Source of the DNA: a phage
Reading direction: 5' to 3' (one strand)
Sequence record: PZ452584.1
Length of the DNA: 64,000 nt
This document shows positions 12,872 through 20,026 of this stretch, in pieces. Position numbers and translations under genes: made by a program. The notes under the pieces were generated by a model. The model was given only the letters and a program-made list of their open reading frames with translations. It was not told the DNA's origin and made no database searches. The first letter of the stretch is position 1. Every line of letters starts with the position of its first letter.

Positions 12872-13090
12872 TTATTTCTCTAATATAAAATAAAAATCAT
12901 CATCTGTTAAATGATACCGATAGTTTAATTCTACACCATTAGATTTAAAAGCGGTATCATACGGATTTTCTGGATCAATATCAATGTCAAGAGCTAAAAC
13001 TTCCCTGAGATACATTTTAAGTAAATAGGGAATAGCTTCAACTTCAGGTATTTCTTCCAAGAATCCGGAGAGGTTAATCGTTAGCCTCAT
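12872..13090 (-). CDS. hypothetical protein
   Basis: 72-aa ORF immediately downstream of gene 55. Confidence 0.4.
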
Positions 13091-13631
13091 ATAAAAAATC
13101 CAAACTAGGAGAATCGTCTACAACACTTTTCTTTTCAGCCCCCGGTGTTCTATAGGTTGATTCTTCGTAATGCGTCATTTTATCGTAGATGTCTTGAATA
13201 AAAGTTTCATCTACTAACGCAACCATATCGTCGTCACGGCTGTCATAGACATTGTGAACGAAGTAACTATATTTCTTTGCAACTTCCTTACGTTCTTTTT
13301 TAATACGTTGGACGAATGCATTAAAACAAGCTTGAGTTATATACGCATGTGGGTTTTTATATTTCGTTTCATCAAAATTATGAAGCCCCTTAATAGAAGC
13401 TTCTATACCATCTGCAATCATTTCTTGTTTCCAAGACTGGGTGTATCCTGAAAAGTTGAAACGTTTAGATAAGCCTTCTGCAATAAGCATAATGGCTAAT
13501 CCAATAGTATCATTCTGACGAACTACTTTATTTGGGTCTTTATTATTTGCTAATTCTGTTTTCCAATCAATAATAGCTTGTAAAAGCTCTTTATTGTTTA
13601 CGTAATTATATTTAGGCTTAGTTTCTGACAT
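13074..13631 (-). CDS. 55: late-transcription sigma factor gp55
   Basis: [32 protein letters not shown]... matches T4 gp55; start at ATG 13629-13631 (SD GAGGTG), upstream GTG in ORF track not used. Confidence 0.95.
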
Positions 13632-13713
13632 TTTCACCTCTTAGCTCAATTCATAGATCTATTATATCATAATATTTGAAGATCTATCTTAAAGCACAGA
13701 GGATGAATCAATT

Positions 13714-14988: not shown

Positions 14989-15118
14989 AAATCATCTGTT
15001 TATGTAACTTAAGTATAAGATAATAAACTTCAAAACCGTTTACATAAGTAACACGAACAACATTACCATTAATAAAATAATATTGTCCCTTTTTAATTTC
15101 TTTATCAACCACAACCAT
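14936..15118 (-). CDS. hypothetical protein
   Basis: 60-aa ORF downstream of early promoter 15149-15178. Confidence 0.3.
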   Translation of the reverse strand: MVVVDKEIKKGQYYFINGNVVRVTYVNGFEVYYLILKLHKQMICDRAVFSSVAKEIKLHG

Positions 15119-15148
15119 ATCAAATCCTCAAAGGCAATTCATGTGTTA

Positions 15149-15178
15149 ATAATACCACAGTTTGAACTTCTTGTAAAC
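15149..15178 (-). promoter_or_regulatory. sigma70-type early promoter
   Basis: minus-sense GTTTAC-N18-TATTAT with A/T-rich upstream. Confidence 0.5.
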
Positions 15179-15259
15179 AACTTTGTGAAAATTATTTTAG
15201 GGAATGATAAGAAGGGAACGATAGCTTAGAATGGTAATATACAGAATGCGAGAAAGAAA

Positions 15260-15273
15260 GGCCCAGAGGGCCC
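15260..15273 (-). terminator. GC hairpin after nrdH
   Basis: GGCCC-aga-GGGCC inverted repeat 3' of nrdH stop. Confidence 0.4.
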
Positions 15274-15276
15274 GTC

Positions 15277-15585
15277 TTAATCTTCTATGATATCTCTATC
15301 ATATCCAAGTGAAATGAGAGTTTCTTTGAAGTGTTTAATGTTCTTTTGTCTAGAATCATTAATGAAAATGACCGGATAACGAATGTTAAGAGATGTGAAT
15401 CCAGCGCGTTTAGCAAGAGATACAATCAGCGGACGATCATACTCAATCTTACCGTTATTTGTAAGAACTTTATAGAAAGTAAAAGGAGCATTGAGCTCCT
15501 TTAGAAGTTTTGTAACTGATTGACATCCAGGACAACGACCTACTTCATCTGGAATTCCATAGACTTCAATCTTATTTTGTTTCAC
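15277..15585 (-). CDS. nrdH: glutaredoxin-like NrdH redoxin
   Basis: 102 aa, CPGC redox motif near N-terminus, position next to nrdG. Confidence 0.6.
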   Translation of the reverse strand: MKQNKIEVYGIPDEVGRCPGCQSVTKLLKELNAPFTFYKVLTNNGKIEYDRPLIVSLAKRAGFTSLNIRYPVIFINDSRQKNIKHFKETLISLGYDRDIIED

Positions 15586-15587
15586 AA

Positions 15588-15800
15588 CTATTCCTTACTA
15601 AGAGCAGCATTCAGCTTGTTAGTAATTTTATCCAGACGCTCATTGAACTCACTAGAAGATAAGCCCTTTTCTGGAGAAATCAAACTAATTACGAAAAATA
15701 TAACAATAAAAGGAATAAGGAAAATAGCTCCAACTGCCATGAACAAAAAGAATGTTACAGTTGTAAGAAAATCAGCTAAACCTTTACGAAATTTATACAT
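15588..15800 (-). CDS. small membrane protein
   Basis: 70 aa, one strong hydrophobic helix (FFLFMAVGAIFLIPFIVIFFVISL). Confidence 0.4.
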   Translation of the reverse strand: MYKFRKGLADFLTTVTFFLFMAVGAIFLIPFIVIFFVISLISPEKGLSSSEFNERLDKITNKLNAALSKE

Positions 15801-15915
15801 ATTTTACCCTTAATTGATTAACCAAGCATTGATAAGCACTAAACTATATTGCGAATAAAATTCTGGACCAAAATGAAAAATCATATCATTTATAGTATCC
15901 ATAATGTAATTCAAT

Positions 15916-16386
15916 TTAATCATGTTTCCACACCCCATCGGTATTTGACCAAAGTCGCTGATTATCTGATCCTCGCCACAGCTTTTTGGTCGGAAGATTT
16001 TTCTCATACTTCCCATCAATAATAACATCAACATATTTAAGCATTTCTAGTTGTTTAATATCTTCAAACTTATATCCTGTCCACAACCAAATGCTTTTAT
16101 TGGGATAAAGATTTTTTACTGTTTGAACAATGCAATGAATAACATCTCGATTGTCAGGATAAAGAGGGTCACCTCCGGTTATAGTTAATCCTTCTATATA
16201 ATCATTATTCAAACATTCAATTAATTGTTCTAGTGTTTCACCAGTGAATGGAATACCATTTCTAGCATTCCATGTTGATTTATTATAACACCCTTCGCAT
16301 TTATGCAAACAACCTGTAACGAAAAGAACTGTCCTGCATCCAGGACCATTAACAAAGCAGCACGGGTATATTCTGTCATAATTCAT
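15916..16386 (-). CDS. nrdG: anaerobic ribonucleotide reductase activase NrdG (radical SAM)
   Basis: 156 aa; CLHKCEGC radical-SAM cysteine motif; follows nrdD. Confidence 0.9.
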   Translation of the reverse strand: MNYDRIYPCCFVNGPGCRTVLFVTGCLHKCEGCYNKSTWNARNGIPFTGETLEQLIECLNNDYIEGLTITGGDPLYPDNRDVIHCIVQTVKNLYPNKSIWLWTGYKFEDIKQLEMLKYVDVIIDGKYEKNLPTKKLWRGSDNQRLWSNTDGVWKHD

Positions 16387-17215
16387 TTATATATTTCCAA
16401 TTATAGCCTTCAACACTTTTACGTTCGCCATTTAAACATTTTAAAATATTTCCTTTGCTAGAAATATTAAAATATTTTGCTGCGTCTGGTATATAATTAA
16501 ATGTTTTTAAAAGAACACCATCTTTATATGCGCCAAATAAATTAAGAGTATATTTTTCTCGAAGACGCTGATGTTTCCTTTTCATAACCTCAGGATTTGC
16601 ATACGCCAACTTCAATGAATTTCTGTGTTTTTCTTTTACTTCAGGTTTTTGCATTGCTAACTTAGTTAGCCTGGAAATTTTATTTCTAACTTCGTCAGTT
16701 TTCATTGCATTTGACAAATTTAATAAAGTTTTATTTCTAACTTCAGGTTTTTGCATTGCTAACTTAGTTAGTTCTCTATGTCTTTTTCTAAAATCGTCAT
16801 CCTTCCATATATTTTTCGATAATTTTGACATAGAGCGGTGAAATAATTCCTTTTCACTGGAATACAATTTAAAAATTTCATCCAATTCATCCGCATTAAA
16901 TCTATCGGTATTCGAGTTTATCATTCTATGAAAGGCATAACACATTTTACTATTGCTTGTTTTAGCTAAATAGTAATGAGCTAACGCATGGTCATAATAT
17001 GACAAATTAACAATATTCCATTTATCTGTTTTATATTCAGGAAATATAGATTTGGGAAGCACGTGATGTGCTTCCGTTTTTCCTTTTATTTTAGGATTAT
17101 TATAATTTTTTGTTATCAAATCAACATATGACAATAGTAAATCATTATTTTCTTCAAATATTAAAGCTAATTTATCATTCACAAAATCGCAAGGATAAAA
17201 TCTATCATAATTCAT
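16376..17215 (-). mobile_element. mobC: HNH homing endonuclease (MobC-like) inserted between nrdD and nrdG
   Basis: 279 aa with KTEAHHVLPKSIFPEY...NLSYYDHALAH HNH core; first 14 codons MNYDRFYPCDFVND copy the nrdG N-terminus; start overlaps nrdD stop (ATGA), stop overlaps nrdG start. Confidence 0.8.
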
Positions 17216-19029
17216 TGGTGTTTAACCCTATGCATGATTTCTTTATTTTTACCGAGATTAAATCCGCGTTCGTTCGGGTTTCCAAGATATCCGCATGTTC
17301 TTCTTATTGTATTCATCTTTTTAGGATCAGTTTCTCCACAAATAGAACAAACAAATCCGTTTTCAGTAGGAGTCATTTCATGGGTACTTCCACATGTAAA
17401 ACATTTATCTACTGGCATATTAACACCAAAATAATCTAAATGTTGTGCAGCATAATCCCATACGGCCTCAAGGCCTTTTAGGTTATTTTTCATATCAGGA
17501 AGTTCAACATAAGAAATGTGACCACCTGTCGCAATGAAATGATATGGTGCTTCACGAGAAATTTTTTCAAACGGAGTAATATTTTCTTCTACTGAAACGT
17601 GGAAACTGTTAGTGTACCATCCTTTATCAGTAACATCCTTTACACTTCCATATTTTTCGGTATCGAGTTTACAGAAGCGATAACAAAGGTTTTCAGCAGG
17701 AGTAGAATACAAACTAAAAGCAAATCCGGTTCTTTCAGTCCACTGTTTAAGATGGGCATTCATTTTAGTTAAAATTTCTTGTCCAATATCACGACCGGCA
17801 AGAATATTCAATTCGTGAATACCAATGTATCCTAGAGACACTGAACTTCTACCGTTTTTAAATAACTCAATTATGTCGTCATCAGGTTTAAGACGAACCC
17901 CGAATGCACCTTCTTGGTAAAGAATAGGAGCAACAGTAGCTTTAACTCCTTTTAAGGAACTAATTCTACACATCAAGGCTTCAAAACATAAATCCATTCG
18001 TTCATTGAACAATTCGATAAATTTCTGTTCATTGAACTGTGTTCCAATATAAGAATCTAACGCAATACGAGGAAGATTCAGTGTTACAACACCGAGATTA
18101 TTACGTCCATCAAGAATTTCATTGCCAGTCGAATCTTTCCATACGCTCAAGAAACTACGACAACCCATTGGAGAAACAGGAATAGATGAGCCGGTGATAG
18201 CTTTATTGTTCTTAGCTGAAATAATATCAGGATACATTCTTTTGCTTGCGCACTCTAGAGCAAGCTGTTTAATATCATAGTTCGGATCGTCTTTATAAAG
18301 ATTAACACCTTCTTCAACGAACATAACAAGCTTAGGGAAAATAGGAGTTATCCCATCACGACCGAGACCTTTAATACGATTTTTCAGAATTGCTTTCTGA
18401 ATCATTCGTTCAGTCCAGTCAGTTCCTGTACCAAATGTAATTGTTACAAAAGGTGTTTGTCCGTTTGAACTAAAGAGAGTATTTACTTCATATTCATAAG
18501 CTTGGAATGCATCGTATACGTCTTTTTCTGTTTTAGATTGGGCATAATTCAGTGCATCGGCGATTTGCCATTTTTCTGCGTCCTCGATATGTTTTGCATA
18601 GGTGCGTTTAACATAAGGAGAAAGTACTTTATCTACATTCGCAAAAGTCGTTCCGCCGTATTGGTGAGAAGCAACCTGTGCGGTAATTTGTGCCATAATT
18701 GCAGTAGCAACGCCAATTGATTTAGGAGTTTCAATCTGCGCATTACCAAGCTTAAATCCGTTCTCAAGCATTCCTTTTAAATCTACTAAACAGCAATTAG
18801 TAAATGGAAGAGCAGGGGAATAATCAATATCATGAAAATGAATAATTCCGCTTTCATGCGCTTTCATAATAAAAGACGGGACCATATTTTTGGCAATGTG
18901 TTTAGACACAATACCAGCCATAAGGTCCCGTTGAGTTGGAAAAACACGAGAATCTTTGTTAGCATTCTCGTTTAAAAGGTCTTTATTAGTTTTATGAATC
19001 AATCCTTCAATTTCTTTTTCAATTGTCAT
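17212..19029 (-). CDS. nrdD: anaerobic ribonucleotide reductase NrdD (glycyl radical enzyme), uninterrupted
   Basis: 605-aa continuous ORF ending with glycyl-radical motif RRTCGYLG and C-terminal Cys cluster; no intron in this phage. Confidence 0.95.
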   Translation of the reverse strand: MTIEKEIEGLIHKTNKDLLNENANKDSRVFPTQRDLMAGIVSKHIAKNMVPSFIMKAHESGIIHFHDIDYSPALPFTNCCLVDLKGMLENGFKLGNAQIETPKSIGVATAIMAQITAQVASHQYGGTTFANVDKVLSPYVKRTYAKHIEDAEKWQIADALNYAQSKTEKDVYDAFQAYEYEVNTLFSSNGQTPFVTITFGTGTDWTERMIQKAILKNRIKGLGRDGITPIFPKLVMFVEEGVNLYKDDPNYDIKQLALECASKRMYPDIISAKNNKAITGSSIPVSPMGCRSFLSVWKDSTGNEILDGRNNLGVVTLNLPRIALDSYIGTQFNEQKFIELFNERMDLCFEALMCRISSLKGVKATVAPILYQEGAFGVRLKPDDDIIELFKNGRSSVSLGYIGIHELNILAGRDIGQEILTKMNAHLKQWTERTGFAFSLYSTPAENLCYRFCKLDTEKYGSVKDVTDKGWYTNSFHVSVEENITPFEKISREAPYHFIATGGHISYVELPDMKNNLKGLEAVWDYAAQHLDYFGVNMPVDKCFTCGSTHEMTPTENGFVCSICGETDPKKMNTIRRTCGYLGNPNERGFNLGKNKEIMHRVKHQ

Positions 19030-19499
19030 TTTAAACTCTTTCTAAGCTGCTTCTTAAATGAAGCTATTAATTGTGTTTTGGTGTCAGATTCATTATATTC
19101 AAATCCTCTTTGAAGCATCTCGGCCATCATTTCCTCTTTTCCTAAACGAGAAAATTCCTTTGATTTATCTCCAACAAAGTTAGGGTGAATATTATTTTGG
19201 GTGTAATCGGATTTTAAATAAGTAAGTAAATTTTCTAACCATTCAAGATAATCAACACCTTGTCCCTTTAAGCCAGAACGATTAAATTTATGCTTCATTT
19301 GACCTTCTGCGGCATTGCAGAGATTACAAAGCAATCCACGCACCTTTCCTGCTTTTGGTCCATTTAATTCATGGTCATGGTCGAGGTGATTAGCTTGAAC
19401 GTCAGGATTTAGTTCTCGTTGGCAAATTAAGCATTTACCGTTTTGTGCATCATAAAATTTCTGTTTTTCTTCTTTATATAATTTGCCAGTCAATAACAT
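19026..19499 (-). CDS. 49: endonuclease VII (Holliday junction resolvase) gp49
   Basis: 157 aa, CxxC...H-N-H-like zinc site (CLICQRELNPDVQANHLDHDHELNG), matches T4 endo VII. Confidence 0.9.
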   Translation of the reverse strand: MLLTGKLYKEEKQKFYDAQNGKCLICQRELNPDVQANHLDHDHELNGPKAGKVRGLLCNLCNAAEGQMKHKFNRSGLKGQGVDYLEWLENLLTYLKSDYTQNNIHPNFVGDKSKEFSRLGKEEMMAEMLQRGFEYNESDTKTQLIASFKKQLRKSLK

Positions 19500-19540
19500 A
19501 ATAAACCCTTACCTTAAATAGATAAGGGTATTTATTATTT

Positions 19541-20026
19541 TCAAGTATTGTAAAACATTTGATTCAATCGCTTATATTGCCGAATCTTTTGGTCAGAAAA
19601 AGAAATTTGAGTTTCAAGCCATTCAATATATTCTGCCGCAGCTTGCATCAAATTTCCTTCATAACCATCGTTATTTTCTTGTGCAGCTAATTTAGCTAAT
19701 GCATATGAAATACGTTCACCTTGAAAATCGGCTTTAGGCTTCTGAACAACTTGATTAGTTCGCTCTACAACTTCTTCAATTTCGCCATTTTCGACTGATT
19801 CAGTATTCCACAAGCACCAATACGTAATTGGCTTATCGTAGATGTTAATAATCTTTCCATCAGAAAGTTCAATTTCAATAATTCCAGTATCAGGCTCTAT
19901 ATCATCTTCACATTCTTTTGCAAGTTCACGAACTTTAAAGACAGTACCTGCACTAAGTTCCGGCCAGTAATTACATAGCCCTGTATCAGCACGATTAATT
20001 CTAAACCACTTATCTACTGTAATCAT
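19541..20026 (-). CDS. hypothetical protein at T4 pin position (161 aa from ATG 20024-20026)
   Basis: ORF with SD GGAG before internal ATG; upstream TTG of ORF track not used; assignment to Pin is by position/length only. Confidence 0.45.
   Translation of the reverse strand: MITVDKWFRINRADTGLCNYWPELSAGTVFKVRELAKECEDDIEPDTGIIEIELSDGKIINIYDKPITYWCLWNTESVENGEIEEVVERTNQVVQKPKADFQGERISYALAKLAAQENNDGYEGNLMQAAAEYIEWLETQISFSDQKIRQYKRLNQMFYNT

Follow-up and report, generated by a model that had tools for sequence, protein, structure and literature searches.

How can a mobile endonuclease gene occupy the first codons of another gene and leave that gene whole? The question is raised by sequence record PZ452584.1, a stretch of 64,000 nucleotides (nt) of Tequatrovirus (T4-like phage) DNA that we call the window. 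There, an open reading frame (ORF) for an HNH homing endonuclease lies between nrdD, encoding the large subunit of the anaerobic ribonucleotide reductase, and nrdG, encoding the radical-SAM activase of NrdD; all genes of the region are on the (-) strand. The ATG of the HNH ORF is found within CACCAATGA, where it overlaps the nrdD stop codon (ATGA), and its TGA stop coincides with nt 9-11 of nrdG, giving an overlap of 11 nt. An earlier note on this DNA, which described both overlaps correctly, proposed that a MobC-like gene had inserted just inside the 5′ end of nrdG and duplicated its target, and it took the copy fused to the HNH gene for the diverged one. Comparison with related phages leads us to another reading, to which we give a probability of about 0.7: a free-standing HNH cassette sits in the 5′ end of nrdG, is read from the nrdG ATG and carries a replacement, "B-type" nrdG start that is predicted to be immune to the enzyme.

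A repeat search identified a direct repeat of 41 nt (16347-16387 and 17176-17216) whose copies are 78% identical, lie 829 nt apart and both begin at start codons. Its ungapped +1/-1 score of 23 exceeded the maximum of 20 (mean, 15.6; standard deviation, 1.6) obtained from 60 dinucleotide shuffles of the 3.3-kb region, in which the best score over all offsets was retained, so that the similarity between the two nrdG 5′ ends is above chance. The spacing of the copies equals the size of the indel that separates the window from endonuclease-less relatives such as RB32. When the two were aligned, the gap fell directly after the upstream copy, and the 829 bp began at nt 41 of the HNH ORF and ended with nt 40 of the downstream nrdG. 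The nrdG start of empty sites, ATGAATTATGATAGATTTTATCCTTGCGATTTT(A/G)T(T/G)AATGG, matches the copy fused to the HNH gene and not the working nrdG start of the window, ATGAATTATGACAGAATATACCCGTGCTGCTTTGTTAATGG.

The two copies behaved accordingly in allele comparisons. The upstream one is identical at 40/40 nt to the endonuclease-less alleles L012, L013 and L019 from IMG/VR and has polymorphisms in common with empty-site nrdG starts. The downstream copy is identical to the empty-site allele at 31/40 nt, and its nine differences include those that give Ile6 and Cys10. Residue 10 is an invariant Asp in 27/27 empty-site alleles surveyed from several genera, including phages only 55 to 70% identical in NrdG. 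Between 7 occupied and 10 empty Tequatrovirus loci, the 829-bp presence/absence polymorphism had identical boundaries, and the only sites fully associated with occupancy were nt 11-29 of the downstream copy and nt 40 of the upstream copy, the latter being the insertion junction. Together, the RB32 alignment and the allele association identify the upstream copy as the resident gene start and the downstream copy as part of the insert. The duplicated nrdG start and the insertion of an endonuclease gene inside the 5′ end of nrdG were thus rightly recognized by the earlier note from the window alone, and alignment of the nrdD-nrdG interval with T4 and T-even relatives bears out the insertion, RB32 lacking the 829 bp. 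The same alignment reverses the roles given to the copies: the fused copy is not the derived one, and the downstream copy was brought by the cassette and not generated by duplication of the target.

By megablast, positions 15800-19100 (3.3 kb) were found intact at 96 to 98% identity in about 30 phage records, for instance AndreasVesalius, Paracelsus and Ozark, while RB32, RB14 and RB33 have the same region without the 829 bp. In all, the arrangement occurs in 22 Tequatrovirus records (at least 95% identity) and 10 Klebsiella-phage records (about 85%). Its recurrence in more than 30 independent genomes excludes mis-assembly across the repeat, a concern of the earlier note. From nt 46 onward, the nrdG genes of the window and RB32 are 93 to 100% identical. 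In IMG/VR, the HNH endonuclease gene was absent and only empty sites were found. The features of the locus are collected in Table 1.

Table 1. Features of the nrdG-nrdD region of the window, in order of position
Feature	Position	Strand	Basis or remark
gp55	13074-13637	(-)	
nrdH	15277-15585	(-)	
nrdG, radical-SAM activase of NrdD, 156 amino acids, MNYDRIYPCCFVNG...	15916-16386	(-)	Pfam Fer4_12 4.6e-48 and Radical_SAM
Downstream "B-type" copy of nrdG nt 1-40, working nrdG start (MNYDRIYPCCFVN)	16347-16386	(-)	Cassette-borne
829-bp insert: HNH body from codon 14 plus replacement nrdG nt 1-40	16347-17175	(-)	RB32 alignment
HNH homing-endonuclease ORF, 279 amino acids, MNYDRFYPCDFVND...	16376-17215	(-)	PHROG 655, phrog_12434
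C-terminal NUMOD / I-HmuI-like module, residues 237-272, ending GYNWKY	16400-16507	(-)	Pfam below cut-off
Internal direct repeat: two 42-nt copies, 102 nt apart, 90% identical, LTKLAMQKPEV module	16628-16771	(-)	Repeat search
HNH catalytic motif region, residues 48-80 (EAHHVLPKS...NIVNLSYYDHALAH)	16976-17074	(-)	Residue conservation
Upstream copy of nrdG nt 1-40, HNH codons 1-13 plus first base of codon 14	17176-17215	(-)	Resident start
nrdD, anaerobic ribonucleotide reductase large subunit, 605 amino acids, one uninterrupted ORF	17212-19029	(-)	Pfam NRDD 2e-171
Empty group I intron site of nrdD (after nt ~538)	18470-18495	(-)	PST intron maps here
gp49 (endonuclease VII)	19026-19499	(-)	

The ten Klebsiella-phage records, which include Mexia, SmallBear and Roth19/77/78, carry an endonuclease body about 85% identical in nt to that of the window, also placed in front of nrdG with the same 11-nt overlap. 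Their upstream copy, ATGAATTTCGACAGAATCTACCCTTCTGACTTTGTGAATG (MNFDRIYPSDFVN), has the same sequence as the local empty allele, L029 (100% identity), from which the preceding 600 nt also differ little (98% identity). Their downstream copy encodes MNYDRIYPCCFVNGPG, the B-type peptide of the window, with six synonymous and no nonsynonymous differences. Between the window and SmallBear, nt identity was 73% in nrdD, 77.5% in the upstream copy, 84.8% in the endonuclease body, 85% in the B-type copy and 66.8% in the remainder of nrdG. Identity of 85% in the cassette against 67 to 73% in its flanks indicates that the body and the B-type copy moved between phage lineages as one unit. The upstream copy is supplied by each recipient.

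The flanks of the insertion are affected on one side. Relative to the empty L029, SmallBear and Wolf_ER13 (hereafter Wolf), a Klebsiella phage with a T4-type mobC gene, differ in a cluster that extends to about nt 136 of nrdG, with sparse differences beyond, while leftward the first difference lies 49 nt (SmallBear) or 94 nt (Wolf) upstream of the ATG. In T4 the rightward tract reaches nt 315. Cassettes more alike than their flanks and accompanied by such tracts are what horizontal spread would leave. One-sided co-conversion, as obtained from double-strand-break repair, suggests a cut on that side of the insertion point, which would place it in the 5′ third of nrdG.

The coding body of the endonuclease does not bring its own start codon. 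In the SmallBear and Mexia copies, only ATG1 and GTG12 precede the HNH motif, both in the nrdG-derived segment, and no start-type codon occurs between that segment and the motif. ATG1 is likewise the only start-type codon before the motif in the MobC proteins of T4 and Wolf. Paralogues at other loci (P0004 to P0008) have unrelated N-termini, and their alignment begins at about residue 15 of the window protein. The closest paralogue (36 to 40% amino acid identity; 75% nt identity over the HNH core) is found at another locus in T2, T6, RB68 and others, at about 33 to 35 kb in the genome. In RB68 it is truncated by a frameshift (P0006, 208 amino acids, versus P0005, 284 amino acids).

The window protein contains the HNH signature EAHHVLPKS...NIVNL...HALAH, in which H50, H51, P54, S56, N67, L71, H76 and H80 are invariant in 7 family members, and it matches PHROG 655 ("homing endonuclease," 7e-37) and phrog_12434 ("HNH endonuclease," 7e-15). 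Judged by this motif, it appears to be a genuine HNH enzyme. NCBIfam gave no HNH assignment for it, and a phmmer search of PDB returned chance matches only. The C-terminal module scored below the Pfam cut-offs for both PF22083 (2.4e-4; 21.1 bits against 27) and NUMOD1 (5.7e-3; 17.3 bits against 22.8); the relative P0007 has both domains according to precomputed Pfam assignments. A natural variant of 242 amino acids (P0002) is devoid of one LTKLAMQKPEV unit, indicating that the central region of the enzyme expands and contracts through recombination between repeats. The ratio of nonsynonymous to synonymous substitution rates (dN/dS) was 0.08 over 265 codons in the comparison with the Klebsiella-phage copy, which denotes purifying selection.

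MobC of T4 (NP_049689; 210 amino acids, gene of 633 nt) is encoded at the same nrdD-nrdG locus and in the same orientation. As in the window, its ATG overlaps the nrdD stop, its own stop is nt 9-11 of nrdG, its N-terminus comes from nrdG (MNYDRIY), and it is followed by its own variant nrdG 5′ end. Both proteins have an HNH core and a C-terminal GY.WKY module, which MAFFT aligned between them. They differ in that BLASTP aligns their HNH cores only (38% identity over 60 amino acids; E, 1e-7), and that T4 MobC is fused at nrdG codon 7 instead of 13/14 and is 69 amino acids shorter. In the downstream nrdG copy of T4, Asp10 is retained, and codons 8, 11, 12 and 13 are changed synonymously (CCA, TTC, GTT and AAC) to variants found in no empty allele. 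Locus and junction architecture are therefore those of mobC, but full-length similarity is missing, the window protein being closer (36 to 40%) to the paralogues P0005 and P0006. To call the gene MobC-like, as the earlier note did, is appropriate by position and family but not by orthology. The same architecture is thus present in two distant Mob-family genes with different junctions.

T4-type mobC also occurs in Klebsiella phages, where its first 9 nt are of the local type. In Wolf, the mobC body is 100% identical to that of T4, the switch from local to T4-type sequence falls between nt 9 and 21, and identity to T4 continues through nt 113 of nrdG. The idea that residues 8-13 of T4 MobC are decayed nrdG sequence was rejected, as they align with a Y..L(I/V) helix conserved in the endonuclease family, and the position of the switch in Wolf also speaks against it. 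Tyr7 of T4 MobC aligns with the family-conserved Tyr30.

The T4 nrdG gene (NC_000866, 42446-42916; L003, compared with L001, L029 and L049) is itself composite. Its nt 1-315 are 87 to 98% identical to Klebsiella-phage alleles and 42 to 87% identical to those of other Tequatrovirus phages, while nt 316-471 are 98 to 100% identical to Tequatrovirus alleles. From these sequences, it seems that a Klebsiella-phage-like donor supplied T4 with mobC and, along with it, about 315 nt of nrdG, and the chimera looks like a fossil co-conversion tract of inter-genus homing. Two phage genera have contributed to the reference T4 nrdG, a point relevant to phylogenies that use T4 NrdG.

The distribution of B-type starts was surveyed with a 54-nt query that matched 81 phage records, and occupants were judged on the 60 matches listed. 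Among the matches listed, nearly all B-type starts have an endonuclease gene overlapping the nrdG start: the HNH gene of the window, T4-type mobC (in SHFML-11 and a few others) or segH. The segH-associated set comprises T6, RB3, RB6, RB7, RB9, F2 and others, T6 being identical to the window at 54/54 nt. With a synthetic query joining a standard nrdD end to a B-type nrdG, nrdD was found immediately next to nrdG in about 560 records, which otherwise carry A-type starts; U5 and ESh24 were the only B-type empty sites among the top-ranked matches. Both have the standard nrdD end, then B-type sequence from nt 12. This is the exact product of recombination within the identical 11-nt ATGAATTATGA, and they are plausibly footprints of cassette loss; alternatively, they could be rare source alleles. 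A degenerate B-type pattern gave 0 matches in IMG/VR, and none of the 27 IMG/VR loci belonged to a B-like empty lineage.

The B-type changes are clustered in nt 12-36 and include GAT to TGC at codon 10, where all three bases are changed (D10C). The allele is about equally distant (9 to 10 of 42 nt) from E. coli-phage and Klebsiella-phage alleles. Codon 8 is CCR in every occupied allele, B-type or T4-type, and CCT in every empty one. B-type starts are found behind segH, which has no upstream repeat, and the T4 changes lie outside the 20-nt repeat of its cassette, so that avoidance of recombination between repeats is not a sufficient explanation by itself. From the pattern of these substitutions, we infer that the B-type start may be a cleavage-immune allele.

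SegH, a GIY-YIG enzyme, resembles the window endonuclease in the site of its gene between nrdD and nrdG, in the B-type nrdG start that follows it and in the overlap of its stop with the nrdG ATG. It differs by its unrelated nuclease family (TIGR01453, 3e-13) and the lack of an upstream nrdG copy. A passage of the review PMC2988022 that cites Sandegren et al. 2005 reports segH as replacing mobC. Unlike the window, segH phages have the last ~20 codons of nrdD rewritten (…GTPSVVPWNLGKMKEMVKRVKHA, then the stop). A long GIY-YIG ORF begins at ATGCATAGG, the Met-His-Arg codons of the standard nrdD end, in RB3 (L051, 1230-1300 and 2089-2113) and PD112 (L052). It is possible, going by this ORF, that the segH start represents a mirror-image "codon capture" at the other flank. 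In the annotation of RB3, segH begins at an internal ATG, which would cut off the GIY motif.

Two further genomes carry altered versions of the site. PD112 (L052, 1283-1525) has an internally deleted segH remnant of about 235 bp between nrdD and nrdG, followed by a B-type start; it represents an endonuclease gene in decay, one stage in the life cycle of such genes at the site. SHFML-11 (L050, 1400-2150) combines a segH-type nrdD 3′ end, the standard GGTTAAACACCA, T4-type mobC, a B-type start and a T4-type nrdG tract, a patchwork that points to recombination among the three cassettes.

We propose the following scheme for the cassette. The mobile unit would be the 829 bp made up of a start-less endonuclease body and B-type nrdG nt 1-40. 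It would sit after nt 40 of the resident nrdG, with the endonuclease read in frame from the resident ATG. In empty genomes nrdG itself is initiated at this ATG, which overlaps the nrdD stop, so that the endonuclease gene would take over the translational coupling of nrdG to nrdD. nrdG would be rebuilt downstream from the cassette's own 5′ end, and with its ATG 8 nt short of the end of the endonuclease ORF, it is probably translated by re-initiation after the endonuclease. A scan of the gene strand detected no T4 late (TATAAATA) or MotA-type promoter upstream of the endonuclease gene or nrdG, the sole MotA-like match being at 16045, within nrdG. The enzyme would cut the empty-site (A-type) nrdG near the junction, and repair from an occupied genome would copy the 829 bp and a variable stretch of nrdG to the right. 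If the target spans the junction, the upstream copy would escape cleavage by having the endonuclease body in place of its right half, and the downstream copy by its rewritten left half (nt 12-36); an unaltered duplicate would rebuild an intact target. Recombination between the repeats, easiest in the identical 11 nt, would delete the cassette and leave a B-type footprint of the kind present in U5 and ESh24.

Other explanations may be considered for the same data. A transposon-style target-site duplication of ~40 nt at insertion, after which the endonuclease-fused copy drifted, no longer encoding NrdG, would account for the two copies of nrdG nt 1-40 that flank the insert and for T4 mobC being unlike nrdG after codon 7. 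It is hardly credible, as a fresh event would yield two local-type copies, but the recipient type was found in the upstream copy only. The supposedly drifted copy is unchanged, matching Tequatrovirus empty alleles at 40/40 nt and, in Klebsiella phages, L029 at 100%; the downstream copy accompanies the cassette from one genus to another, its divergence keeping pace with that of the body (85% for both); and the "drifted" YSNLVNS of T4 belongs to the Y..L(I/V) helix of the family. It might instead be argued that the endonuclease initiates at an internal TTG and that the upstream nrdG piece is an untranslated relic, given the in-frame TTG codons 28 and 33 in the window and the frequency with which pipelines shift starts at this locus, nrdG being mis-started in Ozark and Mexia. 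We find this very improbable: those TTG codons are missing from the Klebsiella-phage copies, where only ATG1 and GTG12 are available, ATG1 is the sole start-type codon preceding the motif in T4 and Wolf MobC, and the fusion is in frame in three sequence contexts at an ATG that serves nrdG in empty genomes.

Could the HNH gene have lost the ability to home and be a decaying or domesticated remnant, with deletions in other phages accounting for its patchy distribution? Degenerate occupants do exist, namely the internally deleted segH of PD112 and the 242-amino-acid variant P0002, and the activity of mobC is listed as "ND" in the review PMC2988022. Nevertheless, the dN/dS of 0.08 over 265 codons, a closer resemblance of E. 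coli and Klebsiella phages in the cassette than in nrdD and nrdG, a T4-type mobC that is 100% identical in T4 and Wolf, and the right-hand co-conversion tracts next to an upstream copy that is always local make a remnant unlikely. There is more to say for the view that the B-type differences have no function, representing either a donor-lineage allele frozen by linkage or a sequence kept because divergence of the repeats prevents cassette loss. Linkage alone would explain why 40 nt stay different while the flanks homogenize locally, and it is compatible with an allele about equally far (9 to 10 of 42 nt) from both sets of phage alleles and with the B-type starts of the empty genomes U5 and ESh24. 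We nonetheless hold this view to be doubtful, since the 27 IMG/VR loci and the degenerate pattern search (0 matches) disclosed no B-like empty lineage, codon 10 has changed at three bases against an otherwise invariant Asp, and CCR at codon 8 is common to all occupied alleles versus CCT in all empty ones. Its repeat-divergence variant is further contradicted by B-type starts behind segH, without an upstream repeat, and by T4 cassette changes outside the T4 repeat.

The mobile, immunity-conferring cassette remains our preferred reading, and several observations weigh against it. SegH and Hef reportedly also cut their own genomes; if so, immunity would not be required. Pfam recognized no HNH domain in the window protein at an E value of 0.01 or below, and the family profile matches the HNH motifs of McrA (best E, 0.003), pyocin AP41 and colicin E9 only weakly. 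The B-type start is not specific to the endonuclease gene of the window and may be of another enzyme's making or serve another enzyme's purpose. Within Tequatrovirus (7 occupied and 10 empty loci), no co-conversion haplotype extends past the 40-nt B-type copy, a pattern compatible with very short tracts as well as with old insertions that have since recombined. For the window enzyme, activity, cut site and immunity are predicted from sequence comparisons, and for mobC the same review lists the activity as "ND" and the target as "unknown" (PMC2988022).

The neighboring nrdD was also compared, as T4 nrdD is split by an intron. The Pfam NRDD domain covers residues 21-604 of the 605, and the window NrdD is identical to the spliced NrdD of phage PST at 602/605 residues. 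No Rfam match to a group I intron was obtained in window positions 15000-20000, while the control phage PST gave RF00028 at 105 bits. These results establish the continuous, intron-minus allele described in the earlier note. The nrdD genes of T4, PST and U5 are interrupted by an intron carrying I-TevII; in PST it measures 1033 nt and follows nt ~538 of nrdD (window position ~18492). Seven synonymous sites near the empty intron site (18472-18493, within ~20 nt) separate the intron-plus PST from intron-less alleles, and RB32 and five endonuclease-bearing relatives carry the intron-less sequence of the window there. Such clustered synonymous changes are the same kind of rewritten target as at nrdG. 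The intron-less state is the common one among the phages examined (the window, RB32 and the five other endonuclease-bearing relatives), and PST has both the nrdD intron and the HNH cassette at the nrdG start. The nrdD of the window is an ordinary intron-less allele, without visible or mechanistic link to the cassette.

The overlap of the endonuclease gene with nrdG misleads annotation pipelines, as in RefSeq Ozark and phage Mexia. Public nrdG starts are displaced to internal ATGs where an endonuclease gene overlaps the true start, giving genes of 393 or 327 nt instead of 471 nt, as in Ozark (NC_054927; L047, 3293-3685), Mexia (L041, 3365-3757) and SHFML-11 (L050, 2228-2554). Such a mis-start removes the conserved N-terminus of the activase. 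GenBank labels the HNH gene "mobC" in PST and "putative homing endonuclease" elsewhere. Between nrdD and nrdG, the Klebsiella-phage relatives possess an additional ORF of ~77 codons that overlaps both genes (L041, L042 and L049, ~2256-2496; also L029 and L038) and is absent from Tequatrovirus.

The nrdD-nrdG site was already known to harbor an endonuclease gene, mobC or segH (PMC2988022), and neither a duplication, nor start-codon capture, nor a portable nrdG 5′ end is mentioned in the mobC literature covered, which includes that review but not the article of Sandegren et al. 2005. Comparable arrangements exist in fungal mitochondria (Allomyces atp6; Glomus atp6, atp9, cox2 and nad3), where an endonuclease ORF, inserted in frame within a conserved gene, brings a foreign, diverged gene end and the native C-terminus, which matches close relatives, is left as a duplicate (PMC3630166). 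In those genes the 3′ end is replaced and the native copy is a downstream relic (PMC3630166); in the window it is the 5′ end that is exchanged, and the native copy now serves the endonuclease as its translation start. Mob-family HNH genes also lie within coding sequence in Aeromonas phage Aeh1, where mobE splits nrdA, and in T4, with mobA and the gene 60 bypass element. There, too, a compensating feature keeps a gene of nucleotide metabolism or replication working. Those solutions give a host protein in two chains or require ribosomal bypass, whereas nrdG of the window stays whole through its duplicated and rewritten 5′ end.

The allele comparison predicts that empty-site nrdG would be recognized at nt ~12-45 and that B-type and T4-type starts would be resistant. 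This prediction narrows the search for the target of MobC. The nrdG cassette does not overturn the general understanding of homing endonucleases. It illustrates how a selfish gene can reside in a gene of an essential pathway without an intron or intein, by giving up its own start, borrowing that of the host gene and paying with a rewritten spare 5′ end, in a 5′ mirror image of the C-terminal replacements made by fungal mitochondrial endonuclease ORFs. A broader and more tentative proposal is that the first ~45 nt of nrdG are a contested landing site, where three endonuclease genes (the HNH gene of the window, T4-type MobC and the GIY-YIG SegH) capture host codons and exchange a B-type "immunity arm" that forces Asp to Cys at an otherwise invariant NrdG residue. 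If this were true, endonuclease immunity would directly drive the protein evolution of a radical-SAM enzyme, and the mosaic nrdG of T4 would be a fossil record of successive inter-genus homing events.

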